Shown: positions 11,500 through 54,305 of the stretch, one piece after another
How the letters are laid out: the number at the start of each line of letters is the position of its first letter
Numbering within the stretch: position 1 is the first letter of the stretch
Assembly: GCA_963748815.1 (NCBI GenBank)
Contig: CAVVKJ010000019.1
Span: 25,921-89,920 of the forward strand
Source of the DNA: an uncultured Gemmatimonadales bacterium
GTDB taxonomy: Bacteria > Gemmatimonadota > Gemmatimonadetes > Gemmatimonadales > GWC2-71-9
Reading direction: 5' to 3'
Length of the DNA: 64,000 nt
Notes under the pieces: model-generated
What the model was told of the DNA's origin: nothing
Seen by the model: only the letters and a program-made list of their open reading frames with translations
The model's database searches: none
Program-made: the position numbers and the translations under genes

Positions 11500-11586
11500 T
11501 CAAGCGGCGGGAATATAAGGACTTGGGGTACCAATGCCAAGCTGACCACCCCTCCCTGCCCGCCCCTTCCCTACCTATAATCCCGA

Positions 11587-13076: not shown

Positions 13077-13111
13077 TTCTCTCCTCCGCTTTCTGACCCT
13101 ACATTCCACTG

Positions 13112-13747: not shown

Positions 13748-13749
13748 CC

Positions 13750-14085: not shown

Positions 14086-14091
14086 GCACTC

Positions 14092-23203: not shown

Positions 23204-23300
23204 CACGCAGCCCTTCGCCGAGGACGACTCACGCAACCAGCCGGCCCGGTCCTTCCTGGACCGGCTGGTCCGCCGGTACGCACGGCCTGCGTACATCGTC

Positions 23301-34995: not shown

Positions 34996-35591
34996 ATGGA
35001 ACAGAACCCAATCCATTTCGAGCCCTGGAAGGCGAGTTGTTCAAGAGTGGCGAAGGCCAGCTCGGCTCCAAACGGCTCCTAGTCCTCGGCGAGGCGCATT
35101 ACTCCGACCATCCTGAGGATGAGACCCCGGAGCTCACGTGCAACCTGCTTCAGACCATCACTGATGGGACCAGGTCGATCGCGTATTTCACAAAGCTCGA
35201 GCACCTGCTCGCCGGTTGCCAGAACGGTGACGGAAGACGCCGTGTCGGGCTTCAATGGGGTTCTACACTTTGACAGGGACTCGTCGCGAAGGCGCGAAGA
35301 CGCGAAGACGCGAAGAGGGGGCTCACACGAAGGCGCATTTGCGGTGTGCTGGCAGAATTGAAACCTCAACGAGTCCTCGTCACCGGCGTCGAACTCTGGA
35401 ACGCACTGAGCCATGGACTCTTTCCGGGCTGGACGTCCAGATCAATGACGCCGGGATTCGACGGCCCGATTTACGAATGGAGTTCGGTGGACCACCAGCC
35501 ACAGGTCTGCGCCACCTGGATCAGCCACCCATCCTCCGGCTCATCCGCCTACGAGAAGTGGACCGAGCGGATTGACACGCTCATGGAGTAG
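34996..35591 (+). pseudogene. hypothetical protein interrupted by a frameshift, a TGA and a 51-nt family A repeat block
   Basis: ATG 34996 after GAGAGGGAAG ('MEQNPIHFEPWK'). It then shifts to the frame of ORF 35037 ('ELFKSGEGQLGSKRLLVLGEAHY..'). TGA at 35271-35273. The repeat sits at 35285-35335. The same frame resumes as 'VLAELKPQRVLVTGVELWNAL...ISHPSSGSS..'. Confidence 0.45.
35285..35335 (-). repeat. family A repeat block (4 CGCGAAG units + GGGCTCACACGAAGGCG) inside an ORF
   Basis: CGCGAAGGCGCGAAGACGCGAAGACGCGAAGAGGGGGCTCACACGAAGGCG. Confidence 0.9.
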
Positions 35592-36193
35592 GCAATCAGC
35601 GAACCCTGCTGTCACACCCCCATGCGATTGTTCGGGTCAACCGTACCACCAACCCGAGCGTGCAATGGACTACCCGTCGAACCCACTAACTCTCTTTCCT
35701 CCTGCAATCCATGAGCTGCTCGACCGGCAATGCAAGTCCTGGAAGCCACACCACGCCGCACTTGTTGTTGTCTTTCGTGTATGGCAACTCGGTGCAGCGC
35801 TTCGGTGGAACGTGGCGCCTCCTCCCTGTTCTACGGATTGGTGCGACTCGAATTGGCGTGTGAGCTCCGACCGACTTGGCTGGCTGGCCGAAGGCAGGGA
35901 GTACGTCCGTCGGAGTTCGGGCCTCACTTCATCAGCCTCGTGGCGGGGTGGAGTTGGGCCGGCCGGAACACGTTCCTCATCGGGGGTTTCCGCCTGCCGC
36001 ATCGTACACGCCTCAAGCGGCGGTACCGCGGAGTCTCCGCATGCTGAGCGGGCAATCCAGCGCCGCGCAGCGTGAATTTCCGACAGTGTTCGCGGCTTCG
36101 CGCGAAGAGGGAACGGTCACCTTCTGGAAGGCGCGCGCGGCCAAGTGCGCGTGCCCCCGGTGTCGGAGCATGAAGTCATCCTGGAACCGGGTC

Positions 36194-36773
36194 TCAAGAA
36201 GTCGCTGCTCGACTGGCTGGACCATTTCTGGAATCAGCAGTCAGCGGCTCGGAACTGGGCCTGACGCCGAGGGGACCCCGCTCGGCCACACCCATCATCT
36301 CCGTGTAGCCAGCCGGAATAGGTCCAGTCCCGGCCTTCCCGGACGGGATGGCCATCTGTATGTCGCCACCACCTCAGGGCGGCAAGCCGATTGCTTCAGC
36401 CGATGCTCGGCCTCTCGCGCCAGCTCGGCGAACCGCTGCACGAGGACTTGTCGGCGAGCACCCGGGCGGTGTGTGGCGCGCATCCGTCCAATGTGAAGTA
36501 ATTGTTCTCGGCGTCCCCCGTTGTGTATCGGGCGGCTCGCGCCAAGGGATCGTGATCCAGTCGCACCGTTGTCGTGGAGGATGTACAGGGCAAGCCAGCG
36601 GGTAGGACGCCGCGTCTGTTCGCCGGAAGAACAGGCCGCTCGGTGCGTTCGCGGAGACGATCCGAAGGCCGCTGGTAGCCGCGCTTGTGCAGTTCGTGCA
36701 CCATCTGGAGGACGCGCACTGCCCGGCGGACAATGGGCTCAGGCGAGCGGACGCTCGGCTTGGGAGTAGCCAT
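36194..36773 (-). pseudogene. conserved hypothetical protein, at least 3 frameshifts (last gene of the HEPN/DUF429 operon)
   Basis: ATG 36773 directly abuts the DUF429 stop (TAGATG). 'MATPKPSVRSPEPIVRRAVRVLQMVHELHKRGYQR', then 'LRIVSANAPSGLFFRR', 'ARYTTGDAENNYFT', 'LADKFLVQRFAELAREAEH', 'AGYTEMMGVAERGPL' in changing frames. Confidence 0.45.
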
Positions 36774-37550
36774 CTAGAATGCCCTTTCTGCGGCTTGGAG
36801 GCAGCAGGAGATGGAGCACGCGCATTGAATGGCCAAGGCGAGCATCCTACGCCAGGCCACCATCTCCATGCGAAGTCGGTACTCGTCGCGAGGAGGATTC
36901 TCGGGGAAGCAGACCGCGTCGCCTCGGCGGATTCGCCTGGCAGTCCAGAGGCCAGCGAACGCATTGAGGATGTCATCCGCCTCACAGCCGAGGTCTTGGC
37001 GTGCGGTGAGGGCGGCATCGATAGCTCCCCCAAACTCCGTCCGAAGGAGTCCCGCCCGTCTTGCCTGACCTTCTGGTGAACGCTTCTTCGCGACAATCGG
37101 CTCGCCCCCCGCCAGGTGAAAGAAGCAGAGCTCGGGATGGACTTCGCGCACATGACCCCGGAGGGAGGGGTCACCCCGCATCAGATCGTCGACCTCACGA
37201 ATCTTCGGGAGGATTGCCCAGGCCTGTTTCGACAGGGCCCGACCCTCGATGCGGCGCCCGATGGCACAGGCGTCCGAATAGGTGGATGCCGTGAGCATCG
37301 GCCGGATCGGGGCCGTGAACACTGAACGACCTCTCGGCTGTCCGAGCAGTTGGCGCGCCGCGATGTCGCACTCGCGGCTGCCAGACGACATCAGCCCTAT
37401 CGGGATATCAAGCGCCAGAAGTTCCGGCGGGTTCGGTGAATCAAGAAGAGCCCGGACCGACGGCACGACCTCCCAGGAGATTCGCCCGTCCGCACTCTCG
37501 CGGATCACGGCCCAGCCGCCCTTGCACCCGTCCGCTCCGGCAATGATCAC
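36774..37550 (-). CDS. DUF429-family protein (predicted RNase H-like fold nuclease)
   Basis: 'IIAGADGCKGGWAV', 'LALDIPIGL', 'RECDIAARQLLGQPRGRSVFTAP', 'LSKQAWAILPKIREVD'. GTG 37550 has AGAAGGTGG upstream; the alternative GTG 37586 would overlap the upstream gene. Confidence 0.75.
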   Translation of the reverse strand: MIIAGADGCKGGWAVIRESADGRISWEVVPSVRALLDSPNPPELLALDIPIGLMSSGSRECDIAARQLLGQPRGRSVFTAPIRPMLTASTYSDACAIGRRIEGRALSKQAWAILPKIREVDDLMRGDPSLRGHVREVHPELCFFHLAGGEPIVAKKRSPEGQARRAGLLRTEFGGAIDAALTARQDLGCEADDILNAFAGLWTARRIRRGDAVCFPENPPRDEYRLRMEMVAWRRMLALAIQCACSISCCLQAAERAF

Positions 37551-37578
37551 GAGGCGGCACCACCTTCTCAACGGAGAA

Positions 37579-38806
37579 TCAGCCACGCTTCACCTGACAC
37601 TTCGCCAACTCTACCAGCACCCCGTGACACCCGATCCCCACAATCTGCACACGCCAACGCTGGGCCACCGTCCGCGGGACCCGGGCGGCGTGCGAGCCGG
37701 GGTTCCGGTCCTTCGCCAAGGCGTCGAGAATGGGGGGCAGCTGCGTCGCGTACCACCCGCCGTTCTCCAGCCGCTTCCCCAGGAATTGCGCCCGCTCACG
37801 GTCCCCGCCGATCACGCGCGCAAGCTGCCCAAGCGACAGCGAGCCGCTCCGGGCCAAGTCCTCCGTCGAGCCATCGATGTTCGCCAGCCGGATCGCCTCC
37901 GGCGCGTCTTGCAACGCACAGAGAAGGATCCGGTTCACCTGTACTTCGACGGCCTTGGCCAACGGCCCCATCGACGCCTGAAAGTCGAAGGCGTCATCCT
38001 CCCGATGATCGCGGAACACCTTCTCCCCGGTCGCGACAAACGTCCGGGCAACCGGATTCGAGGGCCTGCCACGCGGCGTCCCCGAGGAGATTCTCGCGAA
38101 GCTCCCGCTGCATCAGGCCCGTCCCCCCCGATTCCGCGTCAAATTCCGCCCAATACCGCCCCTCCGCGAGGGGCGCGTAGGCCGCCTCGTCGAAGTACCG
38201 ATGGCCATCGGGCCGGATCACCACCAGCGGCAAGTCGACCATTCCTCCGTAGAGGGAAACGGGACGGTCGTGGTAGTGGACATTCCGGAGATGACGAACC
38301 TCCTCGACGACGGAAAGGGTGTCGTCGAGCACGAGTCGTCGGATGTCACGAAGCCTGAACCAGCAGTCGCACCGGAGATCATCCTCGCGGTAGTACACGG
38401 GCAGGTGGTCCGGATCGACGCTGGCAACGTCCTCGAAGGTGATCTCGTCCACGTCCGCCACATAGAGCGAACGGTAGTCGGTCAGGTACAGCTGCAATTC
38501 GCGGGTCTGGTCCTGGCGCAACTCCTCCGCCATCCGCTTCAGGTCGTCGCCGTGCGCCATTCCCTGCTGCCGGTTTTCGGACCGAATCTTTCCCCACCAG
38601 ACGTACACGTCGTCGTCGTCGGACTTGCGCTCTCTCCAGGCCTGGATCCGTGACAACAGGATGCCCAGGTGCGCCTCCATCGCATTCGACGCATAGGCCG
38701 GATTCCAGACACCGAGGAGATGCTGAACGGGAGGGTTCACGGGGCCGCCGTTGGGGTGGGTGGGAGGTGCCGGGCTCAAGATGTGGGTACCTCCGGGAGG
38801 GCACAA
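37579..38806 (-). CDS. two-domain hypothetical protein: unknown N-terminal domain + C-terminal HEPN-like domain; one frameshift near 38,060
   Basis: ORF 37994-38806 ('VYVWWGKIRSENRQ', 'LYLTDYRSLYVADV', 'DRPVSLYGGMVDLPLVV') joins ORF 37579-38019 as '..AAWQALES/NPVARTFVATGEKVFRDH..'. C-terminal 'LAKDRNPGSHAARV' fits the HEPN R-x4-H motif. Start uncertain (TTG 38806, GTG 38740, ATG 38680). Confidence 0.6.
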
Positions 38807-39073
38807 CCGGCCGTGGGCTCAGCCGGGGGGAAGCACAAGATGAATGCGAGAGAATTGCCGGTATTCCTCAACATTGCACGAATAGTTGGCAAAAACGCCA
38901 AAAAGCAGCGGTTTCCACGGCTTTTTGCTCATTTCTTGCTCGACATTCCCACAATTGCCTACTGCCGGGACGCACCGGCTCGCACCCAGACACACCCGGA
39001 CGAGAGTACTGACGCCCCTGTCACGCCCCCACCCTACCTTGGGACTCTGACAATTGTACCTCAAGCAGGATAG
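38807..39073. promoter_or_regulatory. AT-rich divergent control region between the HEPN operon and the nuclease-helicase operon
   Basis: G+C is locally much lower (for example 'CAACATTGCACGAATAGTTGGCAAAAACGCCAAAAAGC', 'CTTTTTGCTCATTTCTTGCTCGACATT'). It shares words with the AT-rich modules at 29.1, 29.8 and 63.4 kb. No promoter consensus verified. Confidence 0.3.
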
Positions 39074-39373
39074 CTCCGGGGAACCTCAACGCCACAGCAC
39101 CCCCGCCGTGAGCAGATCATCGGCAGGTTCCACACGGTCGAGGAGCTGATGAATCTCCCCCAGGCCGCCCCGGTCAAGCTCTCGATGGGCAGGGAGGAAT
39201 TGTTCGAACTGCAGGCCATGAACATCGAGATCCACCAGGCCAACCAGATGGAGTGTGCTCCGGAGGATGCCCGTCAGAACGCGATCCTCACGGAGCGGCG
39301 GCAGCTGGGGATCGACTGGCTGAGCCAGCGGGTGGAGGATAGCTTGAGGAGAAGTCGGCGCAGGCGACCCTGA
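39074..39373 (+). CDS. hypothetical small protein, paralogue of 32580-32945
   Basis: The frame is open from 39074. The first ATG (39149) falls inside the conserved 'FHTVEELMNLP' block, so the true start is upstream/non-canonical or lost. Confidence 0.45.
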   Translation, partial: LRGTSTPQHPRREQIIGRFHTVEELMNLPQAAPVKLSMGREELFELQAMNIEIHQANQMECAPEDARQNAILTERRQLGIDWLSQRVEDSLRRSRRRRP

Positions 39374-39392
39374 TGCATTTCCGGAGCCCCAT

Positions 39393-42300
39393 GGAACAGC
39401 CACAACTCGCCTGGATTGCCAACTTCATCTGGGGCATCGCGGACGATAGTCGAGCGGTGGGGGGATTGTCGGCGGAGAGTATCGATTGAGTCACATTTCT
39501 CTCAACGCAGTCGTCAAGAGCGACCTGCAAGAGATTGTGCTGAGGATCGTTAGGCTCCGGGATGAGCCGAGTGACCTTCAGGCGCGCCTCCTCGGGCTTC
39601 GTCAGCAGTTTGAGCGGGCCATTCGACTTCTCGTTCTTGATCCAACGAGGGCATTCCCCGATCACTTCGAGCGCCTCTGCTACGTTTCGCAAAAGCACTC
39701 GCTCTCGACAGATCTCGTTACCCAGCTGCAGCGGACTCGAATCAGGCTCAACAAGATCGTCCATGAGGTTAGTGCGAATCCGAGTGAACAAGACGTTTCC
39801 GAAACCGCGGCCGTGTTGCTCGCCCTGCTCCACGTGTTCGGACTCGCCCCAACGCCAGCACGAACAGCTCCACCACCACCTCCCACCACGCAACTCGCTC
39901 CGCCGGCTCTTCCTCGCACAAGGATCCGGCCGGCCGAGGGAACTACCCCATCGCCGCCGTCGATCGGCGTCACTGGACGAGAAAGCGTCCCTGTCTCAAC
40001 CACGCCTCCAACTGTTGGCGGACGGACAGCTGTCGCATTCGCGCGAGTCTTCGTCCTGGAGGTGGGTACTGCAGGCAAAGAGGGCCACAAGAGCCTCCGC
40101 TGCAGACACGAAGACTTTGACGACCTTCTCACGGTCGAGCTACACATCCCGTGGGCCGATACTGATGTGGTGTCCTTCTCAACGCTTGCGTTGCACACAG
40201 TAGAGCAGGTGTCGCCATTGCTCTGGCGCACCACCGCCGAGAGTTTCGTTGTTCTGGAACCGGACGTACTTGTGCAGGCTACCGACATCGCGACCTGTTT
40301 CCAATCGAGCCCTCCCAGCCACCTCCTCTATGTCTCCTCGCTGCTGAACTCGGTGCAACAAACCCGCCCGATGGCACAGGGCATCGTCGCCAATACCACC
40401 TTCAACATGCTCCTTGCTGAGAACGATGGTACGCCTCCGGAGTCTCTTCTCGCTCGGGCATGTGATGCTCACGCTGAGGCACTTGGCAGCTTACCGGGCG
40501 AGGTGGATGCCGATGTCCGACGCGCCATCCGCACGGACCACCTCGAGGCCCTGACTGAGATCGCGGCACGGCTTCGCAAGCATCACATTACGGTCGAGCC
40601 GGCTCTATTCACATCTCAGTTTGGTTTGCAGGGCCGCCCCGACGTCCTTGTTGAGCGCGATCAGTCATCCAGCTACGTGGTGGACTTGAAGACCGGGAAG
40701 CCCCCGAGAGAAGATGCGGACCCGGAATGGCCGGCGATGGAAGGCGTGAGAGGCTCCTACGCCAAGGAGGCTGCCCAGTTGGTGTGTTACGACCTTCTGC
40801 TGGCCGGTCGAGGTCCCACTGGGCCAACGCATTATCTCTTCTACTCGGCAGCTGGCGCCAAAGCCGGGGTGCGGGCTATTCACGTCACGTACGAAGCGCG
40901 GCGTGATGTCATCCGAGCACGTAATCGCATCATCGCGGCTGAGCGGACAGTGCTGCTGCCCCCATCTGCCGAGACCGCCTCGCTGACTATGGCGGGACTG
41001 CCGCCGAGACTCCCGCCCTACGCCCGGGAGTCTCTCTGTTGGCTGTGGCTCGTTACCGAGCCATCTGTAGTCCCGACGCTCCACGTACGGACACCTTTGT
41101 CGGCGACCAGGTGCGTTCGGTCATGCAGCAGACGTGGCGCGCACGACTGGGAGGGGGCACGCAGTATGAAGGATCTGGTTTTGCCTCCCTCTGGCGTGAG
41201 CGTGACCTGATCCTCAAAGCGGCAAGTTTGGGCGTGCTGGCGTTTCTTCGCTACGCAAGAATGGAAACGGTGGACAGAAGACAGCTCTATCATTTCACGC
41301 TCGACGCATCGAAAAGCCAACCCTTTATCACTGCTGAACTTCGCAAAGACGAGCCGATCGTCCTGTACCCTCACCTGGATCGCTACGTCGACCATTGAAC
41401 GGCCCGATCATTAAGGGTCGACTGAAGCTCGTCGAGCTTGGTGCCGCCGAGCCGCGGGTTGTAGTGGAGTGTTACAGCGCCACCGCCGAGGCGCTACTTC
41501 CGCGGCACGCACATTGGGCTATTGAGCGCGACTATCTCGAGTCGAGCGGCCGCGCCGCATTTCCGGGGCTCGCCCGGCTGCTGTCCATCGATCCCAATCG
41601 GTTGTCCCTCCTTCTCGGTGACCGAGCTCCCCTAGGCCCAGCGCCGACACTCGCCTCGACAACCACCGGTGCAGGGACCACGCTTCAACAGATCGCCGTC
41701 GCTGCCGCCGAGTCCCAAGAGTATTTCCTGAATTCAAGGCCCACCCGGAACGGGAAAGACGAGCACGTTACTCCCAGCCATCGTCAAGCTTGTGCTTGAT
41801 GAGCGACGCACACCGGTGCTACTCCTCGCCGATGAGTAATCGAGCTGTGGACGAGATGCGGGCGGCAATGAGCAGGCATCATTTCGTGCTTGATCCTTTC
41901 CGTGAGGATCGGCTGAGCGCGCCGGAATCGCCAAGCGCACCCGGTGGGGCCAGTATTGTCTTTCGAGAACGATTGGCAAAGACCGAGGTGTACGCCATGA
42001 CGGTTGCCCAGGCGCAGAAGCGCCATGCTTGGCTGGAGGCGATGGCGTTTGACACCGTAGTCGTGGACGAGGCCTCGCAGTTGCTCGACAGCCAGTTACG
42101 GGGGATCCTCAGCACCGCAACACGATTTGTGCTGATTGGCGATCAGCGACAGTTGCCACCTATCCAGCCCGCTGTGGCGGATGCTGATGGTGAGTCCGAG
42201 GGTGGCGAGGTCAAGCCTTCGACATTTGAGCGCTTGCTGGACAAGATGCACTAGCGAGCGGGTGGGACTACGCGTATGGCATGCTCGAAGAGCAGTGGCG

Positions 42301-42956
42301 CATGCACGAAGAGATCCAGGCGTTTCCAAGCGCAGCCTGCTATGGGGGGCGGCTCCGCATCGGTCAGCCAGTGAGGCAGCGTGCCAGAGAGTGGGTGCGG
42401 TTGAGGCCATGGGCAGACAGCACCCGTAGGGACCCTATTCGCCCACCGCGTGGCGTTCGTGTCGGTCCCGGATGATCATGCACAGGAGGTACGGTCAAAC
42501 TACCGTGAAGTGGAAGTCATCGGTCGTGTAATCGACGAGCTTTGTAGTGAGCTGGGCATCACTCCTGGCTCCATGCCGCAAGCCGCTGATGCTACTCTTG
42601 GCGTAATTGCGCCATTTCGAGCCCAGGTAGCTGCCATCAGCCGTCGCCTTCATGAATGGCGGCACTGGGTGAAGGTGGATACCGTGGAGCGCTTTCAGGG
42701 GAGCGAACGCGATGTCATGGTGATCTCCATGACAGCTGACAATGCGCAGGAGCGGACGATGGCCCAGAGTATGTCCGCGGACGGCCTCATTGATCGGAAG
42801 CTGAACGTCGCCATCACGCGTGCCAGAGAACATTTGATCGTCGTTGGGCACGAACCGACCATGGCAGGTGGGGCATTCACGGCGCAGTTCTTGGAGCATG
42901 TGAGACAGTATGGGACGTTTGTGACCGCCAAGGAGCTTGGCCTCAATGGCGGATGA
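39393..42956 (+). pseudogene. very large Cas4/Dna2-like PD-(D/E)XK nuclease + SF1B (Dna2/NAM7, AAA_11/AAA_12) helicase with an N-terminal DUF4145/HEPN-like domain; at least 6 frame changes
   Basis: Pieces: 39393-39486 'MEQPQLAWIANFIWGIADD'. 39486-41210 ('TRIRLNKIVHE', Pro-rich linker, 'GLQGRPDVLVE..YVVDLKTGK..QLVCYDLLL'). 41039-41398. 41395-41799 (Walker A 'GPPGTGKT' out of frame at about 41,740). 41790-42254 ('SNRAVDEM', 'VVVDEASQ', 'LIGDQRQLPP'). 42281-42475 ('EEQWRMHEEI'). 42450-42956 ('VDTVERFQGSERDVMVIS', 'NVAITRAREHLIVVG'). Confidence 0.8.
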
Positions 42957-43308
42957 TATGCTGGTGGCATTCGTGGCGGGGTTACGCCGGCAACTCCTGG
43001 ATAGCCCCAAGGGCTTCAGTGATCCAGCGGACCGAGCGAGCAGGCCGCTCAAAGGTTGGTGGAGCGAATACTTCGATGAACAGGACTCGGACGGACTGCT
43101 ACTGGAATTGGCTAGCCGTGGAGAGACTTTGTCGATGGTCTTGTACCGCGTGGCAGAAGCTCACCTGCGCAACGGTCGCGTTCTGGGCACTACGGAACGG
43201 CCACTGTCGTGTGAGTACGAACAACTGGGAGTAGGCGTTGGTAGATACTGCTCGCGAGCGGTGCGGGCGTGCCTGCAGCGCGAGCTTGGAGTTGTAGAAC
43301 CTCAATAG
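42946..43308 (+). CDS. hypothetical protein
   Basis: ATG 42946 overlaps the helicase stop by 11 nt. 120 aa. No motif recognised. Confidence 0.4.
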   Translation: MADDMLVAFVAGLRRQLLDSPKGFSDPADRASRPLKGWWSEYFDEQDSDGLLLELASRGETLSMVLYRVAEAHLRNGRVLGTTERPLSCEYEQLGVGVGRYCSRAVRACLQRELGVVEPQ

Positions 43309-43487
43309 AGGCCGCGACCCCAGCACACAGACTCCACGACCGTACTCGAAGTGGAAGGAATTCCTAGCGGGTCACTGGTGGCCGCACCACCGGGGCGGCC
43401 CACACGCCACCTATCCGCGTCCACTGATGTCATGCCTGATGTGGGGACCTCTATGCCTAGGGGACCCACCGACCCCGGCGAGATCTC

Positions 43488-44168
43488 CTACGCCATGAAC
43501 CGCTGATCACCCCGGGCCCAACCCGTATATAGCCGGGTCACGCCGAGTGTGGCCAACGGCACGACGGAGCCTGGCTCGGCATCCGCACCGAAGAGCTTCA
43601 GGAATGCCGCAAAGTCCGAGTAACCTGCATCCTGTGTGCTGAACGAGTGAACGAGCAGAATGGCCAGGGGCGCATGGTAGCGATGAGCTGCCAACACTGC
43701 CGATGCCGCCCGGTGAAATAGCTGGTAGCGCAGGGTAGGATCCTGGTCTTCGTCCAAGCCGAGCGTGGCGCAGAGGAAGCTCCAGCGGACTTGTTTCCCG
43801 TTCGATGCGTCTTTCCGCCACTCGCCTAACGTGGGCCCAAACGTCTCAGCGACTTTCCCCTCGACCGCCATGGCAAAGGCGCCGCCCTGCGCTCGGCCCA
43901 AAACCATAACATCGGTCTGCGATGGCCGATCGCCTCCTGGGAGGGCCGTCTCATACTCCGGGACAGCGAGATATGGAGCAGGGTTCGAGAGGGCACCGTC
44001 TGGCGCGGATCCAAGGGCAGCGGAAACTTCAGGCGGTAGGCCATCCGCCGCCTCCCAGCATAGCGCCAACGCCTTCGCGGAATACCCGGTCTTCCAGTGT
44101 TTCTCGGGGTCGGCCAGGTATGGCTTCCAGTCGTCAGGTCCAACGGTGCATGCGAGGATTCTCGACAT
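43488..44168 (-). CDS. conserved hypothetical protein (DUF6946-like, from memory), last gene of the restriction island
   Basis: 'HWKTGYSAKALALCWE', 'LAVPEYETALPGGDRPSQTDVMVLG', 'AVEGKVAETFGP', 'LRYQLFHRAASAVL', 'ILLVHSFS'. The D..E-x-K spacing is compatible with a PD-(D/E)XK core. Confidence 0.6.
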   Translation of the reverse strand: MSRILACTVGPDDWKPYLADPEKHWKTGYSAKALALCWEAADGLPPEVSAALGSAPDGALSNPAPYLAVPEYETALPGGDRPSQTDVMVLGRAQGGAFAMAVEGKVAETFGPTLGEWRKDASNGKQVRWSFLCATLGLDEDQDPTLRYQLFHRAASAVLAAHRYHAPLAILLVHSFSTQDAGYSDFAAFLKLFGADAEPGSVVPLATLGVTRLYTGWARGDQRFMA

Positions 44169-44212
44169 ATCTGCCCCTGGTGAAAGTCACATGCGACGAC
44201 CCGATCGACTAC

Positions 44213-45166
44213 TTAAGGCTTGAGTTCCTGCATGAGCCCTGACTGCCAACCTTCATACCTTCCATCGCGCACCTTTCCGAAAAAGCTCGTGTAGTCTTCC
44301 GGGGACAGGAAATAGAAATGGTAGCGCCACTCTTCGTTCGTATCCTTCAGCCGTTGGTTCAGTGTCTCGAAGTGCTTCACGCCATCTCGGAGCTTTGCCT
44401 TGTTGCGGTTGGAATCATCTCCCTCCGCCTTGATCTCGACGACAAGAATATCATGCCCACCACTGACCCTTAAGAAGAAGTCCGGATTGAAGTTCTCGTT
44501 TGAAACATGCGTCTTTGCGGCCTTGGCTGGTTTATAGGAATACGGGAATGAATAGCCACCAGTGTTAGGCATCTTTACAAAGGCATCAAACAACTTGCCG
44601 TTCTCAAACAGGAGGTCAGAGAACTTGCGCTCTGGCTCATGACTGGCGTAGTGGACGTTCCAGGGCGACTTGAACGCGCTGACGTCCACTTGATGAATCC
44701 GACCTCCGACGGCCTTCGCCTGGTCAGAGGCATCATCTCCGTATTCCGCGCACATTCTTACAAACCTCTGATACTGTTCCCAGAGATGGACTTCGTGGCC
44801 GGTGAACGGTTTGGTGTCTCCATCCACAGCGTAAAGCACACCATCTTCCTTGAGCATGCTTTCGGAGAATGACTGCCGCGCTAAGGCACTCAGGTCCACC
44901 GGGACGAGCTCCCGCCCCGTCTGGCTCATTCGTGGATGCTGCTTGCCCAATTCCCGAAACATCGGGCCGAAGCCCTGCTGAAGGCGCAGCAAGTTTTCCT
45001 TGCTTAAGAACGTTGCGTCTTGCCCCGCGGCTCTGAGCCTTGCCACAATGAACTCGTGCAGCCGCTTCTTCGGCCAGGCTGCGCCCAGCCTAGCGTCCTT
45101 TTCTCGCAGGAAGAGCCGCAACAGTCTCGCAGCATCTTCGATGCTCCAGTATATCGTCATGTTCAA
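44213..45166 (-). CDS. res: type III restriction enzyme Res, C-terminal endonuclease part
   Basis: 'NPDFFLRVSGGHDILVVEIKAEGDD' is a PD-(D/E)XK motif. It overlaps the helicase ORF by 77 nt in another frame, and the frame is open only from a TGA just upstream of the ATG. Confidence 0.7.
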   Translation of the reverse strand: MNMTIYWSIEDAARLLRLFLREKDARLGAAWPKKRLHEFIVARLRAAGQDATFLSKENLLRLQQGFGPMFRELGKQHPRMSQTGRELVPVDLSALARQSFSESMLKEDGVLYAVDGDTKPFTGHEVHLWEQYQRFVRMCAEYGDDASDQAKAVGGRIHQVDVSAFKSPWNVHYASHEPERKFSDLLFENGKLFDAFVKMPNTGGYSFPYSYKPAKAAKTHVSNENFNPDFFLRVSGGHDILVVEIKAEGDDSNRNKAKLRDGVKHFETLNQRLKDTNEEWRYHFYFLSPEDYTSFFGKVRDGRYEGWQSGLMQELKP

Positions 45167-46799
45167 TCTCGACCGCCAGCCTCCCAGTCACGGAGAAGGT
45201 GGAGTACTCCGTCGTTGCGCGGTCCTGGGGCATGAATGTCACATCCGGCTCCTTCGCCCGTTCCCGCTTCGTCTCCACAGTCGTCTGCTCCGGCTCATAA
45301 CGCAGATTGTGTAACGGAAAGAGATACTTGCTGCGACGTTGGTCGAAACCCCACGTAAGGGTATTCTCCACCTCGAGCACTTCCTTGAGCAGATTCCCAA
45401 CTTCCTCAGACCATGCTTCGTGGTTGTTGATGGTGACCAAGGGCTGCGCGCTCAGGCCTGGCGGCACCCGCAAACCACGTCCAAGTACCTGTGCGATCAA
45501 CAATTTGGAGGAAAATGCCCGTGATTCGTGCGGCACGATTTGAAAGATATTCTTGACGTCCCAGCCTTCGGTAAGCATGGAGACTGAAACGATCCACTCC
45601 ACAGGGCTTCCCGGCTCGTCGACCTGCTTGAGCATGGCCAGGTTCTCCATCCGTCGCTTTTCCGGAGAATCCTTGGCATCACGGGGGCAATGGGCTGCCT
45701 CCACCCTCGCCTTCCCGGCACCAGACGGCACACCAGACGTCACCCATATCGCCTTGTTGGTCGCTTCCTCACGCGTGATCTTCTCCTTCTTCATGAGGAA
45801 GTCCACCAGTTCCCTCCAGACCTCCACACACCTGGCAATCTCCTGGGTGACGACAATCGACATCGGCTTCACTAGCTTGCCGTAGTCCTTTTGATTCTGC
45901 TGATGAATAGCGTATGTCTTGCGCCAATCATGATTGGTGTAGGTGTCTTCCAGTTTGTAGTTTGGCTTCTTGACGACCTTGTCGGCGATGGCCTGCTTCA
46001 AGCCATAACGAAAAACGACATCGGGGAAGTAGTCGTCGACTATATATGGTGTGCCGGAAACGTTCACGATCTGTCGGAAGCTGAACTCCTCGTGCTGCAA
46101 GAACTTCATCCATTCCTTCAAACCCTTGTCTGGCGGGCTGAACAGGTGATGCGCCTCGTCGTTCAATACCAGCGTACGCCCACCGCGCCCCCGGAGGCTA
46201 TCTCGGATAGACGAGCCAGTATTCTCGTACACCGCGTGGATATTTTCCACGCAAATGTCGCCTGCATGAATGGTCTCGTTGCCGTGCTTGATGGCGGGAA
46301 TGGCCACCGCGGCGCCAAGTTCTTGCATGATGCCGGAGAGCTCGCCAGTCCCTGCCAGCGAAGTGAACTTCTCCAACAGCCCCTCTTCAATGGTGAGCGA
46401 CGGGCACAGGACCAAGACCCGGTCCACGAGCCCCTCGGCCAGGGCTATGGCCGCCAGAGCATACATCACAAAGCTCTTGCCAGATCCGGTTGCAAGGTCC
46501 AGCGACACCGACTTCCGGTCCCGGAGGGGCATCTTGCTGAGGTAAGCATCAATGCTCTCATGCCGTTGCTGAATCGGCTCGCGCTTGTTCCAATTCTCCC
46601 GTGCAAGCTGCTCGAGGTTCGAATACTTGTCTGAGACAAGGAATCGAAGGACCTCACGGACAGCGTCGCGCTGGAATGCATATTGATCGGCGCAGAGCAT
46701 GTTTAGGAAGGCGTCGTACTTGTGGATCACTGCCTCTGTGGAGTCGCGGCTATCGTCCACCAATAGGACCTGATCGGCAATGCGGAATTGGAGGCTCAT
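45090..46799 (-). CDS. res: type III restriction enzyme Res, SF2 helicase/translocase part
   Basis: ATG 46799. 'DLATGSGKSFV' (Walker A), 'LVLNDEAHHLF' (DEAH), 'VSGTPY', 'MLTEGWDVKNIF', 'QVLGRGLR'. Confidence 0.85.
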   Translation of the reverse strand: MSLQFRIADQVLLVDDSRDSTEAVIHKYDAFLNMLCADQYAFQRDAVREVLRFLVSDKYSNLEQLARENWNKREPIQQRHESIDAYLSKMPLRDRKSVSLDLATGSGKSFVMYALAAIALAEGLVDRVLVLCPSLTIEEGLLEKFTSLAGTGELSGIMQELGAAVAIPAIKHGNETIHAGDICVENIHAVYENTGSSIRDSLRGRGGRTLVLNDEAHHLFSPPDKGLKEWMKFLQHEEFSFRQIVNVSGTPYIVDDYFPDVVFRYGLKQAIADKVVKKPNYKLEDTYTNHDWRKTYAIHQQNQKDYGKLVKPMSIVVTQEIARCVEVWRELVDFLMKKEKITREEATNKAIWVTSGVPSGAGKARVEAAHCPRDAKDSPEKRRMENLAMLKQVDEPGSPVEWIVSVSMLTEGWDVKNIFQIVPHESRAFSSKLLIAQVLGRGLRVPPGLSAQPLVTINNHEAWSEEVGNLLKEVLEVENTLTWGFDQRRSKYLFPLHNLRYEPEQTTVETKRERAKEPDVTFMPQDRATTEYSTFSVTGRLAVEIEHDDILEHRRCCETVAALPARKGR

Positions 46800-46836
46800 G
46801 TTGCCCTACGCCCCTTTCGTGCCCCCGCCTTCTTCT

Positions 46837-48417
46837 TCACGGTCTTTGTAGGCTTGCGACGCGGCGCGCCCTCAAAGTCCCCTCTTTCAGCAGCAGCGCC
46901 TTCTCATTTCCATACCGGTCGCAGAGAATCATCATCATCTGCTTCCCGCTGAAGTCCGCCTCCGCGACTCGCAGTTGCAGCCGCTGCGCGCCTTCCAGCC
47001 CACCAGCTGCCTTGACTATGTCCTCTCCCCACAGCACGTGGCTCAACCGAAAGACGTTTCCGTCGTAGTGGGTATCGACCATGGCCATGGAAAATGTCTC
47101 GAAGTTGCGGAAATCCTCGGGGTCGGTCGCCAGCGTCTGGGCCCGGAATTCCGTGATCTCCAGGACAAAGTCAGCAAACAACTCACCAGGTAGTGCTTCT
47201 TTCTTTGCCTTCCAGGCCACTTGAGGTTGCGAGATGAAGTCGAAGCCTACAGCATCGATCACCTCATTCACAGCGGCTTCACTTGTCGGTTGCTTTAGTG
47301 CGGCTGGCATGCCCTTCTCGATCAGCCGGAGCAGTACCGAGACTGGAACCTTGAGGAAGACATACGTCGTGTCGCCCCTTGTCACCTCGTCTTCCGCAAA
47401 GTCCATCGATATCACGGGAGCAATGACATAGAATCGCTCAGCCGTCTTGCCGCGCAGGGTGCGGTGGAGGTCATCCACGTAGGCGTGGTCTAGCGTGAGC
47501 GCCGGAAAGTCCGGATAGTTCCACAGCAGCACCGAATGGGTGCCGATGTACCCATCGAGCGCCAACCCATAGCGCGTGTGGGGATGCTCCCTGACGCCAA
47601 AGAGCTTCAGCACGAATGGCCTGTAGTCCACCCACGGCAGCCCTTTGATGGTCTCCATGTCATAGACACCTGCCCGGTAGAGCGCGAACTCCTTCGCTGG
47701 CAACGGCTTGTCCTTGGCGGCCTTGTCCTTCGGCTCAATCACCGAGAGCCTGAATTCCACTCCACCAACCACGATGCGTTTGGCACCTGGCCCGTTCTCA
47801 GGTTCCGTCAACCGGTTCGAGGGGATCCGCATTTTCTCAGCTGGGCAGACCAATGACAATGACGCTCCCTGCTTCACCAAGTTGTGTGTTCCGACGAGGG
47901 TAGCCAAGTCCTTGAGCAGCTCCATCGTGACCTCGCACTCGCCTTTTCGCGCCTTGTCAGTGATGAGAAGGACGCTTGGCGCGCCTTTCAGATGGCCCGC
48001 CCAATCCTCCACTCTCTCGGGCTCGTTGCGGTCGTCCTTCCTCGATGTCCCGATGCTCGAGGTGAGTGAGAACAGGCGCTTCTGTGTGGTATAGATGGCC
48101 AACTTACCGCAATCCATGGCGATCCAGCGCCGCCCCAGCTTCTCCGCGACAGCTGGCGTGGTTCCGCTGCCGGCAAAGCAGTCGAGGACGATATCCCCTT
48201 CGTTTGATGAGGCACAGATGATGCGTTCTGCGAGCTGTTCAGGCTTCTGGGTTGGATAAGCGATGCGCTCTGCGGCTTGGCTGTTGACAGCCTTAATGTC
48301 GGTCCAGATCGACTGGATGGCAGCTCCTTTCTGCTCACTGAGGTAGGCTTTCAAGCGCGGCCACCCTCCCTTCTTTGCTGGCCAATAGATGCGCCCTTCC
48401 TTGTCAAGCCGATCCAA
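46837..48417 (-). CDS. mod: type III DNA methyltransferase Mod, C-terminal part (reading actually continues in frame from 48558)
   Basis: 'YPTQKPEQLAERII', 'VLDCFAGSGTT' (motif I), then about 380 aa of target-recognition/other region. Same frame as ORF 48559-49290. Confidence 0.85.
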   Translation of the reverse strand: MDRLDKEGRIYWPAKKGGWPRLKAYLSEQKGAAIQSIWTDIKAVNSQAAERIAYPTQKPEQLAERIICASSNEGDIVLDCFAGSGTTPAVAEKLGRRWIAMDCGKLAIYTTQKRLFSLTSSIGTSRKDDRNEPERVEDWAGHLKGAPSVLLITDKARKGECEVTMELLKDLATLVGTHNLVKQGASLSLVCPAEKMRIPSNRLTEPENGPGAKRIVVGGVEFRLSVIEPKDKAAKDKPLPAKEFALYRAGVYDMETIKGLPWVDYRPFVLKLFGVREHPHTRYGLALDGYIGTHSVLLWNYPDFPALTLDHAYVDDLHRTLRGKTAERFYVIAPVISMDFAEDEVTRGDTTYVFLKVPVSVLLRLIEKGMPAALKQPTSEAAVNEVIDAVGFDFISQPQVAWKAKKEALPGELFADFVLEITEFRAQTLATDPEDFRNFETFSMAMVDTHYDGNVFRLSHVLWGEDIVKAAGGLEGAQRLQLRVAEADFSGKQMMMILCDRYGNEKALLLKEGTLRARRVASLQRP

Positions 48418-48558
48418 CTCCTTATTTGCAAACTTCCAGTGATTGCCTTTCGCTCCCGGGATGAACCCACGCCAAGGGCTTCCCGATGAGCCATTTCGGA
48501 GCCCAGCCTGAGTCGCGTCAATCGTTGCGAAGCGGCGTCCGTCAGCTTCACTGTAAGT

Positions 48559-49290
48559 CTAGTAACGATCGATGTAGCTTGGGTCGTGGGCCAAGAACTG
48601 TTCGTTAAAGCGGAAGTTCGTGGCTTTGGAGTAGAACAGCAGAACATCGTGAATGTGATTGAATGTATGCGAGTCACTGCGGGCAGATGTCCGCTTCCAA
48701 ATGATCTCGTTCTGGAAATTGTCTTCCCCGAACGTCTCGTCCAATACAGCCTTCAAGTAGTGACTCTTCTTCGTATCCAGGTGCACATAGATGCTACCGT
48801 CGTCGGCAAGCAGTTCGCGGAGCAGAATGAGACGGCGCCTGAGGAATTCGATGAACTGTGCGCCGAGGACCTTGTCCCGGTAGGCCTTCTCCTTGTCCTT
48901 CATGAAGTCCTGCCGCGTGGCAAACGGCGGGTCGATATAGATGAGCTTGATCTTGCCGCGTGTGCCGAGGCGGTTCGGCCCCTGTTGGTCGGCGAGCAGC
49001 TCCCGCAAAGCAAGGAGATTGTCCCCCCATACCAGCAGATTGCGCCAGCCGTCGCCATGCGGCCTCTCAGCACAAAAGGACCGCTCCAACTGCCACGGCG
49101 CTGCCGGCGTCTGGGCCAGCACCTCCTCGCGGGACAGCTTCCCCTCATAGACCAGCCGGTACTCCTTGCCGATTTGAGAGGCGCGCCCGACGTCAGGAAA
49201 GAGGCGCTGTCGCCACTGTTCGGATAAGGGAGTCCCCGACTTGAGTAGGTTGTTGAGGTGCTGGCGCTCGGCGTCGTTCAAAGGCTTCAT
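48559..49290 (-). CDS. mod: type III DNA methyltransferase Mod, N-terminal part ending at an in-frame TAG
   Basis: ATG 49290. 'LIYIDPPFATRQDF' (motif IV DPPF, beta-class order). 'IYVHLD', 'NEIIWKR'. TAG at 48559-48561. Confidence 0.85.
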   Translation of the reverse strand: MKPLNDAERQHLNNLLKSGTPLSEQWRQRLFPDVGRASQIGKEYRLVYEGKLSREEVLAQTPAAPWQLERSFCAERPHGDGWRNLLVWGDNLLALRELLADQQGPNRLGTRGKIKLIYIDPPFATRQDFMKDKEKAYRDKVLGAQFIEFLRRRLILLRELLADDGSIYVHLDTKKSHYLKAVLDETFGEDNFQNEIIWKRTSARSDSHTFNHIHDVLLFYSKATNFRFNEQFLAHDPSYIDRY

Positions 49291-49340
49291 GGATAGTGGG
49301 TCCAGTGGTTGTTCTAGGAGTGGGGCGACCGTGGAACCGA

Positions 49341-51137
49341 CTACAACTTTCTGAAGTACTTCTTGATGCGCGCTGCCATTAACCTCCGACGTTCGACCAG
49401 GAAGCTATCATAATCCTCGGCCAAGCCATCGAATATCCCCTCCGGAATGCAGTGCTGCTCCAGGTTCTTGCGAAGGTCTTCCCTGTCGTCTAACCCTCCC
49501 AACTTGCGCTTGCCTCCAACGCATTGCTTCTCAACAGCACGGAAGTAGTCTGATGGGGGACGCGCACCAATCGCAATGTTGATTTCACTCTGCGTCACTG
49601 CAAAGTTCGCGATTTGGTTATACTTGCCGCGCTGCAATCCCTGGGCTTTTAAGTGCTTGCGTGGAAATATATGGTGCACATCGGAATGGTTCTCGATGAG
49701 ATCCTGCACGGTGATATCACGGGACAGGAACCCCAGGTCCCCCAGTTTCACTTGCGCTGCCTGGAACACCAGGAAGAAGGGGCTCCTTGTTGAGGAGGTC
49801 TCCATCTGCTGAGGGAGGAGGACATTCCAGAAGTCATCCGTGAGCGAGGAAGTCACGGTGGTGTCAACGTGCTGCTTGAGACCACGCTCGTCGATCTGCC
49901 GAATATCGGAGTCAAAGGCGGATTCCGGCGTCCCGCTGTAGCGGCCGGTCAGCATCGACATCACAAACCATTGTTTCACAAGGCGCTCGATCTCGGCGGA
50001 CTCCACCTTGTCTGCCCGACCACGCAGATAAATGATGTACGCAAAGTTGATGGCGTTTTGGCTGCCGATGAGGTCCGGGCTCACGAAACCGGCAGATCGC
50101 AGGATCATGATGAGACGCTCAAAGTGCGTCTTGTTGATGAAATTGTGCACGCCGGTGCGCAGTTTAGTGAACGATTCCTCCGCGATGGCCTCCTCGTACT
50201 GCTTCGTTTCGAAATTGCGTCCGGAGAGCAGGGCCACGAGGTCTTGAAGCTTCCCCCGCTTGAACTCGCTCGTGAAGGCCACCCTGAGCATGTCCGTGTA
50301 TGACGGGTCGTAAATGTCGTCGTTGGTGTCCTTCAGCCACCCAATTTTGGGGAAGAACTCTGATTTGGCAAACACAGGGTCACCGTTCTTGATCTTGCTA
50401 TAGAACTCGGGCGCCACTGCCAGGTGACAGAAGTAGTCAATCGCCTTGCGCAGCAGATTCCCGCCATAGGTGTCGTTGGCAGCAATTTTGGACATCGCGA
50501 AGTCGGCCTGACTCAGTTCCTTGCCGGCCGAGTTTACTCGAATGAAAATCTCTGTGACCGTTTCGATGTCGAGGTCGTCAGATAGATCGATGATGCCGAC
50601 ATGGTTATTGATGATCTTGCGAAGTGTCTCGAGCGTGGTGAAGACCGTGTCTTCGCTCATCCCGGGATTGTCCGCGGCATACGCCTTGGTGATCTGGAGA
50701 AGTTTCGCATCCGGCGCGAAGACTGCTGAGACGTCCGGAATCCAGGCCGAGTCCCGCTGAATGGCGGGATTGGACACCTCGAACAGCTCATTGCCCGGAT
50801 GGAAAGCGATCCGGATCCGCGCCGTCTCGTAATCCTTGTTGACCACTTCATAACCGAGGAGTGCCGCCATCAGGGCGGTCACCCTCTGCTGGCCATCGAT
50901 GAGGATGCGCTTGCCTGCTGACGGACTCCCGTCCTTGAGACGTACGGTGGGATTACGCCATGCGATGAGATATCCTACGGGGTATCCGCGGTAGAGCGAG
51001 TCCAACAGACCCCGAACCTGAGTCGCATCCCAGACAAATGGGCGTTGAATTTCTGGGATCGCGATCTCGCCAGACTTGACCCAAGTGAGCAGCGTGTCAA
51101 TTGGGTGCGGAGTGACTGTATATCGCTGGGTTGCCAT
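49341..51137 (-). CDS. GmrSD-like type IV restriction endonuclease (DUF262 + DUF1524)
   Basis: ATG 51137 after AAAGGGA (alternative GTG 51146). '[10 protein letters not shown]', '[11 protein letters not shown]' (DUF262 DGQQR). C-terminal '[11 protein letters not shown]...[10 protein letters not shown]' (His-Me/DUF1524). Confidence 0.85.
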
Positions 51138-51257
51138 CGGTTTCACGTCCCTTTGTCGCGGTATTCAATGAAGGATTGTGACGCGCTGTCCTACCGTCAT
51201 GTGCACATCCGCTCAGGCATGGGTGCCCGCATCAGGCGGTCGCCGCGCAAGCCAATG

Positions 51258-53249: not shown

Positions 53250-53254
53250 GGATG

Positions 53255-54022
53255 TCAGTTCGGTTCGGGATAGATGCGAATGCGATGTACGGCTGAGATT
53301 TCAAGGTGGTTTATCCATATTTCGAACGTAGAGAAGAGGTTAAAACTCTCCCTATAGAACGAGTCGCTATTGATCGCCAACACACGGCCATGCGGGCCGT
53401 AGACCACCGCCTTCAAAACAGTGTCCTGCGTAAGCGTGGCGCCGTCTCTAGAATAGATTTCGCCAAGAATTGTGAGTTGGTTTGACTCTACGGATACCCG
53501 CACCGAGAGACCCTCTAGTCGAATACCGAGTTGCTCCTCAAGTACTTCTAGTCGTTCGATATGTTCGAGCAATCGGTCTGCTAATTGGCTTTCGGATAGT
53601 GGGAGGTCCTCGACTTGCGTCATTGCAAGCTTCCAACCCTCATCGGCAGGAAGATCGGGGTCGATACAGTCGAACCGCATTGCGATCTTCTTGCCAGAAT
53701 GCGGCACGCTAGCATGGCAGTACAGCGCGTCGCCGATGCAGATCTCCTGAAGGTGGCGCCGATAGAAGACCAGCCCACACTTCCTACTGGCATTGGGAAG
53801 GATCGTTTCCGATTCGACCAGGTAGCCCGTCAACCAAATGCTCTGAGTGAGTTGCTCGCCAGCGGCGGTGACGTACGTAGCCTTGGAAACCTCTATTCCC
53901 CTAGGCACGGAAGCGAAATTTCTAATCGCGAGGTAGAAGAGGTAGGCCTCTTCGTCGTTGTTCATCTCCGTTTCCTCAATCGAGGAGATCTGGAATTGGA
54001 AACCGACGAGATCAGATGTCAT
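53255..54022 (-). CDS. hypothetical protein, no recognisable domain; first gene of the island
   Basis: 255 aa. Its stop TGA (53255-53257) lies 5 nt before the ATG of the GHKL gene. Two beta-rich halves are joined by the helical 'SESQLADRLLEHIERLEVLEEQLGIRLE'. A+T-rich codon usage like the rest of the island. Confidence 0.6.
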   Translation of the reverse strand: MTSDLVGFQFQISSIEETEMNNDEEAYLFYLAIRNFASVPRGIEVSKATYVTAAGEQLTQSIWLTGYLVESETILPNASRKCGLVFYRRHLQEICIGDALYCHASVPHSGKKIAMRFDCIDPDLPADEGWKLAMTQVEDLPLSESQLADRLLEHIERLEVLEEQLGIRLEGLSVRVSVESNQLTILGEIYSRDGATLTQDTVLKAVVYGPHGRVLAINSDSFYRESFNLFSTFEIWINHLEISAVHRIRIYPEPN

Positions 54023-54305
54023 ACCTCACACCCTGGTGCGAGCATAGTATCGGTATCACGTACCATGAAGTTGCCTCGACTGCCGACTAGACATCCAATG
54101 GAAGGACAAGATGTGGAGATGTTGACGTCAGGACTCACCTAACCATGAATGCGATCGGACCGACACGGTGGACCAAGGGTTTGTGCTTCAGCTTGGACCG
54201 AACTTCCAAATGTACCCACTGGATATACCCGCGATAGGGCAGTGTCCTGCCGTGGCGAGCGAGCTTTGCGGGGCCAGACTGCTCCCGCCTCGGCGCTTGG
54301 CCTGC

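Follow-up and report, generated by a model that had tools for sequence, protein, structure and literature searches.

A frame-broken gene for a HEPN-Dna2-like nuclease-helicase in a low-GC island of a Gemmatimonadales contig

The window analysed here, a stretch of 64,000 nucleotides from contig CAVVKJ010000019.1 of an uncultured Gemmatimonadales bacterium (assembly GCA_963748815.1, positions 25,921 to 89,920), carries at 39486-42956 a single frame-interrupted gene for a nuclease-helicase with a HEPN-like head and a Dna2-like order of domains (Table 1). In the six-frame listing of open reading frames (ORFs) and the three-frame translation, overlapping stop-free stretches in all three forward frames tile 39450-42953. 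Pfam profiles recognise fragments of one protein on these pieces (PDDEXK_1 at 2.6e-7 and Dna2 at 3.5e-5 on the first, AAA_11 at 2.4e-10 on the fifth, AAA_12 at 2.8e-8 on the sixth and 1.4e-23 on the seventh), and the gene is uninterrupted on a related contig, so that the case for one stitched protein is far above chance. A first-pass annotation of this DNA had proposed such a protein, joined from six ORFs in at least six frames and about 1,180 codons long. The multi-frame reading stands, with eight frame segments and seven insertions or deletions (indels) as the actual structure; the list of six ORFs was incomplete, as it missed a short frame 2 piece with the Walker A motif in it, along with a 16-nucleotide piece in frame 1. 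The proposed start at 39393 gives way to a TTG codon that agrees with the N-termini of homologues, the peptide encoded at 39391-39447 appearing to be a relic of another gene. Plots of GC content at third codon positions (GC3) gave too weak a signal within the island for placing frameshifts, and the GC minima at second codon positions are consistent with the stitched frames.

The reading frame is whole in at least two other assemblies. A look-up of the intact neighbouring DUF6946 gene (43488-44168, reverse strand) led to a 38-kb metagenome contig from ENA, L001, and to two Logan contigs that carry the same island. On L001 the gene is a single ORF of 1,155 amino acids (11213-14680, reverse strand), which replaces the earlier estimate of length, and the Logan contig ERR15459710 holds an intact 1,155-amino-acid gene adjoining the exact 120-amino-acid downstream product of the window. 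On another Logan contig, ERR12037370, the gene is called only as a 318-amino-acid C-terminal fragment. By blastn, window positions 36940-54173 are 99.05% identical to L001, and within the gene the two differ by seven 1-nucleotide indels whose net shift leads back to frame 0. Because these indels break the frame, the helicase cannot be produced from the sequence of the window as it stands. Once the window allele is repaired, 15 of its codons differ from those of L001, 12 of them nonsynonymous and 3 synonymous, and five of the 12 amino-acid differences fall in or directly after a proline-rich linker.

Table 1. Coordinates of the features at the nuclease-helicase locus, in positions of the window
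Feature	Position	Strand	Details
HEPN-Dna2-like nuclease-helicase gene	39486..42956	+	TTG start, GGAGAG seven bases upstream; stop 42954-42956
Frame segments 1 to 4 of 8	frame 0 39486-41036; frame 2 to 41391; frame 1 to 41730; frame 2 41732-41830	+	
Frame segments 5 to 8 of 8	frame 0 41832-42242; frame 1 ~42244-42259; frame 2 to 42419; frame 0 to end	+	
DUF4145/HEPN-like five-helix domain, residues 1-120	39486..39845	+	alignment, Pfam on relatives, AlphaFold2 (AF2)
Head motif TRIRLNKIVHE	39735-39767	+	frame 0
Putative HEPN residues	R85 39738-39740; N89 39750-39752; H93 39762-39764	+	
Pro-rich linker, predicted disordered, residues ~121-180	39846..40025	+	AF2 predicted local distance difference test score (pLDDT) <50 at residues 134-177
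OB-like beta-barrel, residues 181-257	40026..40256	+	AF2 strands
PD-(D/E)XK (RecB/Cas4-fold) nuclease, residues 265-516	40278..41033	+	Pfam PDDEXK_1
Nuclease residues	D386 40641; D400 40683; K402 40689; Q431 40776; Y435 40788	+	
Nuclease motifs	GRPDVLVE 40632-40655; VVDLKTGK 40677-40700; QLVCYDLLL 40776-40802	+	
SF1B (Upf1/Dna2-like) helicase core	41738..42953	+	Pfam AAA_11, AAA_12; PDB sequence matches
Helicase motifs, first part	Walker A GPPGTGKT 41738-41761; motif Ia SNRAVDE 41835-41855; DEASQ 42066-42080	+	Walker A in frame 2
Helicase motifs, second part	QWRMH 42293-42307; FQGSERD 42693-42713; ITRAREHL 42813-42836	+	QWRMH in frame 2
Deletions relative to L001	-T 41037; -C 41392		blastn
Insertions relative to L001	+A 41731; +G 41831; +A 42243; +G 42260; +G 42420		blastn
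Indel tract	41037..42420	+	spans second barrel/stalk region, then helicase from domain 1A into early 2A
Small downstream ORF	42937..43308	+	20-nucleotide overlap with helicase stop; 123 amino acids from TTG or 120 from ATG 42946

The head of the protein resembles DUF4145, an established HEPN family (PMC3710099). Among 30 aligned relatives, which had been chosen for carrying the R-x3-N-x3-H motif, R85, N89 and H93 do not vary, and Pfam DUF4145 (PF13643) matches 23 of these 30 heads, with a best E value of 4.8e-8; weak precomputed matches to the same family exist on the relatives P0008 and P0003. The window's own head gave no match to the profile even at E <= 1, which weighs against the assignment, and the DUF4145/HEPN-like label of the first-pass annotation thus holds at the level of the family and not as a Pfam match on this copy. 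Modelled alone by AF2, the head is a five-helix bundle (pLDDT 93) whose top Foldseek matches are the HEPN proteins 7ae6, 2hsb (template-modelling score 0.63) and 6m6u, at weak E values of 0.14-0.2. The catalytic spacing had been read as R-x5-H; it is in fact R-x7-H with a central N, and this R-x3-N-x3-H spacing equals that of RAZR, in which defence depends on R146 and H154 of the DUF4145 domain (PMC13017515).

Beyond the head, an AF2 model made on the exact window fragment 39486-41036 (pLDDT 87.3) lays out five helices at residues 8-116, a disordered linker at 134-177, a beta-barrel at 181-257 and an alpha/beta nuclease at 265-516. The low pLDDT of residues 134-177 bears out the proline-rich linker noted earlier. 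In a Foldseek search of the PDB with residues 1-517, mouse Dna2 (5EAN) came first, with an E value of 7.7e-11 over 356 columns that fit barrel plus nuclease, and was followed by AdnAB, Cas4, ACE1 and Exo5. The barrel also drew separate matches to HIN and SSB OB-folds, and the Pfam Dna2 N-terminal domain matches amino acids 215-357. Within the nuclease, G380, G383, D386, K402, Q431 and Y435 are invariant in alignments of 40 and 61 members. Nucleases of Dna2, Bad, AddB and Cas4 are defined by an Fe-S cysteine cluster, which in the iron-staple kind consists of one N-terminal Cys and C-x2-C-x5-C and binds 4Fe-4S; the intact allele lacks it, reading PPYARESLLLAVARYRAICSPD with one Cys. No relative in a 10-sequence alignment has a conserved Cys triad, and the sole conserved Cys reported from the 40- and 61-member alignments is C271, at 90% or more. 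The description of this domain as a Cas4/Dna2-type nuclease is therefore right as to fold only, the four-Cys Fe-S signature being absent. Searched against PDB sequences, the N-terminal fragment gave no match, and tblastn of plasmids returned just two weak matches, from Bacteroides/Phocaeicola.

The C-terminal half is an SF1B helicase of the Upf1/Dna2-like type, with Walker A, Ia, II (DExx), III, IV, V and VI and two RecA-like domains. On the intact allele, AAA_11 and AAA_12 match at 3.8e-22 and 3.6e-35, and PDB sequence matches to IGHMBP2, Dna2, Sen1 and Upf1 range from 1e-23 to 1e-17. The first-pass annotation had claimed a complete SF1B motif set; every motif that it quoted, in nuclease and helicase alike, lies in the window at the coordinates checked, and the helicase motifs are invariant in the 40-member alignment, with conservation of at least 90% when 61 members are aligned. 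Its likening of the whole to Dna2 is likewise borne out, by the top Foldseek match and by the presence of Dna2 and IGHMBP2 among the PDB sequence matches.

Among named systems, Dna2 (mouse, PDB 5EAN/5EAX) is the closest in plan. It shares the order of OB-like barrel, PD-(D/E)XK nuclease, barrel/stalk and SF1B helicase, and for residues 715-1123 it ranks with the best sequence matches (3.2e-23). The window protein thus has what marks Dna2 and Bad, namely a RecB-family PD-(D/E)XK nuclease ahead of an SF1B motor, with an OB or barrel element. It differs from Dna2 in lacking the four-Cys Fe-S 'iron staple', in having a DUF4145/HEPN head and disordered linker, in a structure-aligned identity of 17-18% and in its bacterial island setting; membership in the iron-staple group was rejected, the Cys signature being missing in the intact allele and across the family. 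The sole biochemically characterised bacterial analogue that we found is Bad of Geobacillus stearothermophilus, described as a 5'-3' single-stranded DNA translocase, helicase and single-stranded DNA endonuclease that was discovered through its Fe-S cysteine signature and depends on it (PMC7430649). We liken the two by description; the Fe-S cysteines are found in Bad only, and the part of its report that was consulted makes no mention of a HEPN head.

Other likenesses are more partial. RAZR/PD-T7-4, Ishtar (bioRxiv 10.64898/2026.07.06.735840) and other DUF4145 HEPN defence proteins have the same type of head with R-x3-N-x3-H, and RAZR carries its HEPN domain C-terminal to a zinc finger as the sole effector, whereas in the window protein a HEPN domain, as a putative RNase, heads a nuclease-helicase. 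Staphylococcal Nhi embodies the same concept, a nuclease and an SF1 helicase in one protein of a defence island, with a different size and domain set; kinship with Nhi had been suggested, and it was rejected because the PADLOC Nhi model matches only 36 amino acids near Walker A (residues 743-779, E 4.9e-4). For the helicase core, PADLOC comes nearest with its models of Mokosh, whose motor is Upf1-like SF1 (MkoA 6.3e-54, MkoC 3.1e-34), but it is the C-terminal third of the models that aligns, and the HEPN, OB and PD-(D/E)XK parts lie outside the match. No phospholipase D (PLD) nuclease, as in MkoB or the C-terminus of MkoC, was found in the protein or its neighbours, and membership in Mokosh was rejected since the helicase core alone matches. 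NCBIfam matches fell below their cut-offs (IGHMBP2 family 175 against 348.9 bits, PLuB_AAA 172 against 999, ProA 74 against 1500, and Hhe also far under); a literature search on 'PLuB' found nothing relevant. In the literature that we found, the architecture is undescribed apart from a 2013 table entry of DUF4145 fused to a UvrD/exoV-alpha-type helicase. By analogy, we picture a protein that would work like Dna2 and Bad with a HEPN head added, outside the iron-staple group, Nhi and Mokosh.

The repaired protein belongs to a large family. Searched exhaustively with HMMER, the stitched protein matched 22,079 proteins at E <= 1e-3, more than 900 of them at E <= 1e-30; the best 150 have E values below 1e-74, are nearly all of 1,060-1,245 amino acids and align almost end to end, the best of them at 38% identity. 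Full-length homologues thus number more than 150, and the concern of the first-pass annotation that there might be none does not apply. JGI labels relatives 'Dna2'. A word-index homology search with the 586-amino-acid N-terminal fragment found nothing, the proline-rich linker having probably saturated the candidate list, and the same search without the linker found two distant partial proteins of 488-561 amino acids at 27-28% identity; that index seems to contain no close relatives. None of the genes around the window copy (DUF429, PUA-HEPN, DUF6946, the 94-amino-acid ORF upstream and the small downstream ORF) was found near homologues by tblastn of 89 loci at E <= 1e-3, so the DUF429/PUA-HEPN pair, earlier suggested as a conserved neighbour, does not recur there.

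Why the gene is broken is a question on which the evidence divides. We consider that the seven indels are probably consensus errors of an indel-prone metagenome assembly. By blastn against L001, the interval 41.0-42.5 kb holds seven indels, each of 1 nucleotide, against four substitutions, and neither nonsense substitutions nor large deletions. Several conserved genes are frameshifted elsewhere within 38 kb of this free-living, high-GC genome while coding composition is intact on either side, which suggests such an assembly. A backbone hexapeptide acyltransferase (23253-24018, forward strand) has a frameshift at ~23530-23537 and a source gene call of 142 amino acids, with orthologues in Gemmatimonadales metagenome-assembled genomes that are 93-95% identical, intact and 239-255 amino acids long; this gene places the window in Gemmatimonadota. 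A pyridoxal phosphate (PLP)-dependent decarboxylase (11587-12979, forward) has Pfam positions 12-132 in one frame and 146-373 in another; a Na/Ca exchanger (26598-27687, forward) has its two Na_Ca_ex repeats in different frames; and in VIT1 (27750-28386, forward) the C-terminal end alone is in frame. The 120-amino-acid downstream allele of the window type, moreover, stands beside an intact helicase gene in ERR15459710.

Several observations weigh against this explanation. The indels are clustered, seven in 1.4 kb as against one in the adjoining 10.2 kb (P=8e-8 at the adjoining rate, 1.5e-3 at a broader background rate), and all seven lie beyond the nuclease domain (P=0.016; for the span of the indels within the gene, P=0.018). 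Uniform assembly noise does not predict such clustering, and just three of the seven fall in reference runs of at least two bases. The ratio of 12 nonsynonymous to 3 synonymous codon differences fits relaxed constraint, and the fragment in ERR12037370 means that some populations may carry a truly disrupted gene. No shared motif, such as a methylation motif causing base-calling errors, was found at the seven sites.

Several of these points feed the strongest alternative for the breakage, that the indels are real and the gene is a recent pseudogene, a dead relic of island cargo that was truncated after the nuclease and then gathered further 1-nucleotide indels neutrally downstream, where all the others lie. 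We regard this as possible and hold it tentatively. It draws, besides the clustering, the codon differences and the 318-amino-acid fragment, on the varying frame states of the res gene and of a 255-amino-acid ORF (53255-54022) between assemblies, and on indels of an evolutionary type nearby, namely a 3-nucleotide in-frame insertion at 38608-38610 and a compensated pair at 36950/36955. Set against it is the ratio of indels to substitutions, 7:4 at ~0.27% substitution divergence, which is far over the expectation for neutral decay; in bacteria decaying neutrally that ratio is far below 7:4. The flanking 10 kb are 99.98% identical to L001 and so leave little time for seven events, and the frameshifts in backbone genes of the same contig point to a technical cause. 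Neither error nor decay accounts for the local excess of indels.

Two further explanations fare worse. It is very unlikely that the 574-amino-acid ORF at 39486-41210, which spans the HEPN, OB and nuclease parts, encodes a shortened but working protein that was retained once the helicase had been lost: the first indel does lie directly past the nuclease domain, at residue 517, and the 1.55 kb upstream are free of indels, but no high-ranking homologue has such an architecture (the 488-561-amino-acid matches being so distant), the N-terminal half holds 11 of the 15 codons that differ (nine nonsynonymously), and the exact 574-amino-acid product has no record in any assembly. Programmed recoding, for which only the net return to frame 0 speaks, was rejected with near certainty, given seven shifts of both signs, no common slippery motif and uninterrupted alleles of ~99% identity. 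Since the breakage on this contig is probably mainly due to assembly indels, its frame-broken genes should not be taken as pseudogenes without read support.

The stop codon of the gene is overlapped by a small ORF, which the first-pass annotation had seen as a 120-amino-acid frame and which may, judging from sequence, be a partner gene of the helicase. It has no Pfam or PADLOC match and weakly resembles (26% identity, E 0.007) an ORF that overlaps the stop of a 38%-identical relative, P0151. At position 43306 the window reads TAG where L001 reads GAG; the window and two Logan contigs stop the small ORF at 120-123 amino acids, and on L001 it reads on to 189 amino acids, into the convergent DUF6946 gene. 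All of the stretch that is conserved with the ORF of the P0151 clade lies within the short form.

The gene lies inside a 26-kb stretch of low GC content, 0.55-0.62 compared with ~0.69 in the backbone. Its neighbours there include two N6/N4 methyltransferases, a split ResIII and endonuclease, GmrSD, a NOV_C/sacsin-like gene, DUF6946 and, divergently, a PUA-like-HEPN gene followed by DUF429; a type III-like mod/res pair is among them. Directly upstream of the start, positions 39391-39447 of the forward strand encode in frame 1, as does L001, the peptide MEQPQLAWIANFIWGIADD. Searched by tblastn against plasmids, MEQPQLAWIANFIWGIADD matches 81 records, and all 15 of those listed fall under a gene for a restriction-modification DNA methyltransferase or restriction-modification protein; the best match, from Meiothermus, is 74% identical over 19 amino acids. 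To go by its letters, the peptide looks like the 5' end of a methyltransferase gene, left as a relic when one cassette replaced another.

Other parts of the island differ between the window and L001. At 37579-38806 (reverse strand), the 'HEPN' ORF (37579-38019) and a 270-amino-acid ORF (37994-38806) are the two halves of a 398-amino-acid PUA-like protein that is intact on L001 and split in the window by +A at 38057; its C-terminal half carries an RNPGSH (R-x4-H) motif. DUF429 (36774-37586) is 86% identical to the L001 copy, the 201-amino-acid gene beside it has 80% amino-acid identity, and an AAA-ATPase gene at 35000-36420 (437 amino acids on L001) has 52% and is split over two frames in the window; the left part of the island is thus a mosaic relative to L001. 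A small gene of high GC3 at 39098-39373 (forward), with neither Pfam nor PADLOC match, encodes on L001 94 amino acids with an Arg-rich tail; in the window a T>C change at 39090 has removed the ATG, and a 74-amino-acid ORF from 39149 remains. The type III-like res at 44213-46799 (reverse) is split into a ResIII part of 569 amino acids and an endonuclease-like part of 317, with a 77-nucleotide overlap. This split is common to the window, L001 and ERR15459710, and ERR12037370 has a continuous ORF of at least 491 amino acids, which hints that the res frameshift is real and possibly phase-variable. In the mod gene (46837-48417, reverse), deletion of a T at 46885 (TTTT to TTT) alters the last codons and the length (526 versus 519 amino acids) and abolishes the 4-nucleotide overlap with res that is present on L001. 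At the right edge of the island (53.2-54.2 kb), window and L001 differ by 14 indels and 20 mismatches; the 255-amino-acid ORF there (53255-54022, reverse), which is unannotated, is continuous in the window and falls in three frames on L001 (152-911). At 56739-62905 (reverse) lie two long intact ORFs of 1,041 and 1,014 amino acids, the second with PDDEXK_1, which are probably an AddA/AddB-type end-resection pair.

Altogether, we think it likely that the locus holds, in frame-broken form, the gene for a HEPN-Dna2-like enzyme made as a single polypeptide, carried as cargo of a low-GC, Gemmatimonadales-like defence island and more probably broken by errors than by decay. From the N- to the C-terminus the enzyme would comprise a DUF4145-type HEPN domain, a disordered linker, an OB-like barrel, an Fe-S-free PD-(D/E)XK nuclease, a second barrel or stalk and an SF1B motor. 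By analogy with Dna2 and Bad, we envision a scenario in which the intact 1,155-amino-acid protein would load on single-stranded nucleic acid that offers a free 5' end or flap and translocate 5' to 3' at the expense of ATP, the strand being cut at the PD-(D/E)XK site, and the HEPN head, with R85, N89 and H93 intact, could contribute RNase activity or serve as a sensor. Given its island setting, the window's clade would most likely act against invading DNA. A defence role of this clade is plausible, and its basis is genomic context.

The main alternative to such a role is that the family is one of housekeeping enzymes of DNA repair or replication, bacterial analogues of Dna2 and Bad, and that the island copy was acquired horizontally; we treat this as a possibility worth keeping, held with reserve. 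Dna2 and Bad are themselves repair and replication enzymes (PMC7430649). The family occurs in many species of Prevotella, Bacteroidales and Proteiniphilum, and some of its genomic settings count against a role in defence. In a Bacteroidota genome (P0042) the gene adjoins recJ, with uvrA nearby, and in Cloacimonadota it shows the synteny ftsY-gene-secDF or ftsY-gene-SNase-pgk, which points to a core gene in that phylum and not an island gene. Annotation gives ftsY upstream and SNase/pgk downstream at one of these loci (L017) and secD/secF downstream at another (L011), and two more (L025, L039) agree with them by ORF sizes; the Cloacimonadota copies have an intact HEPN triad. In addition, no full-length model in PADLOC 2.0 or NCBIfam 20 reached its cut-off. 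Of the best 150 relatives, 42 keep the exact R...N...H triad and 108 lack it; of 55 genome loci, 7 keep it and 48 lack it. Because of these counts and the Cloacimonadota synteny, much of the family looks housekeeping.

Against such a role for the window clade stand its HEPN catalytic triad, which it retains, and its place in a low-GC island among restriction and defence genes, beside the 5'-end relic of a methyltransferase. The relatives P0151, near a transposase and other helicases, and P0004, near transposases and HsdR, lie in comparable company (two others, P0003 and P0008, are among unrelated genes), and its broken or truncated state in some samples indicates that the gene can be spared. 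We infer that an immune reading applies at best to the HEPN-active, island-borne clades.

A wider proposal, which we offer as speculation and think rather improbable, is that the family forms an unrecognised and widespread class of single-protein nucleic-acid surveillance enzymes, in which an RNase-type HEPN head would be joined to an Fe-S-free, Dna2-like DNA nuclease and motor. HEPN-active island clades, that of the window included, would provide a new kind of immunity from one gene (or one gene plus the small ORF), and HEPN-degenerate clades would have been domesticated as core repair enzymes in Bacteroidota. The family is widespread and uncharacterised, and the window copy adds little beyond pointing to it. 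If its intact members are active enzymes, they would join the few nuclease-helicase effectors made as single polypeptides (Nhi, Hna and Mokosh II), with an unusual fusion of an RNase-type toxin domain to a motor that processes DNA ends, and would provide a natural experiment on how core repair enzymes, as in Cloacimonadota and Bacteroidota, are co-opted for conflict, or the reverse.

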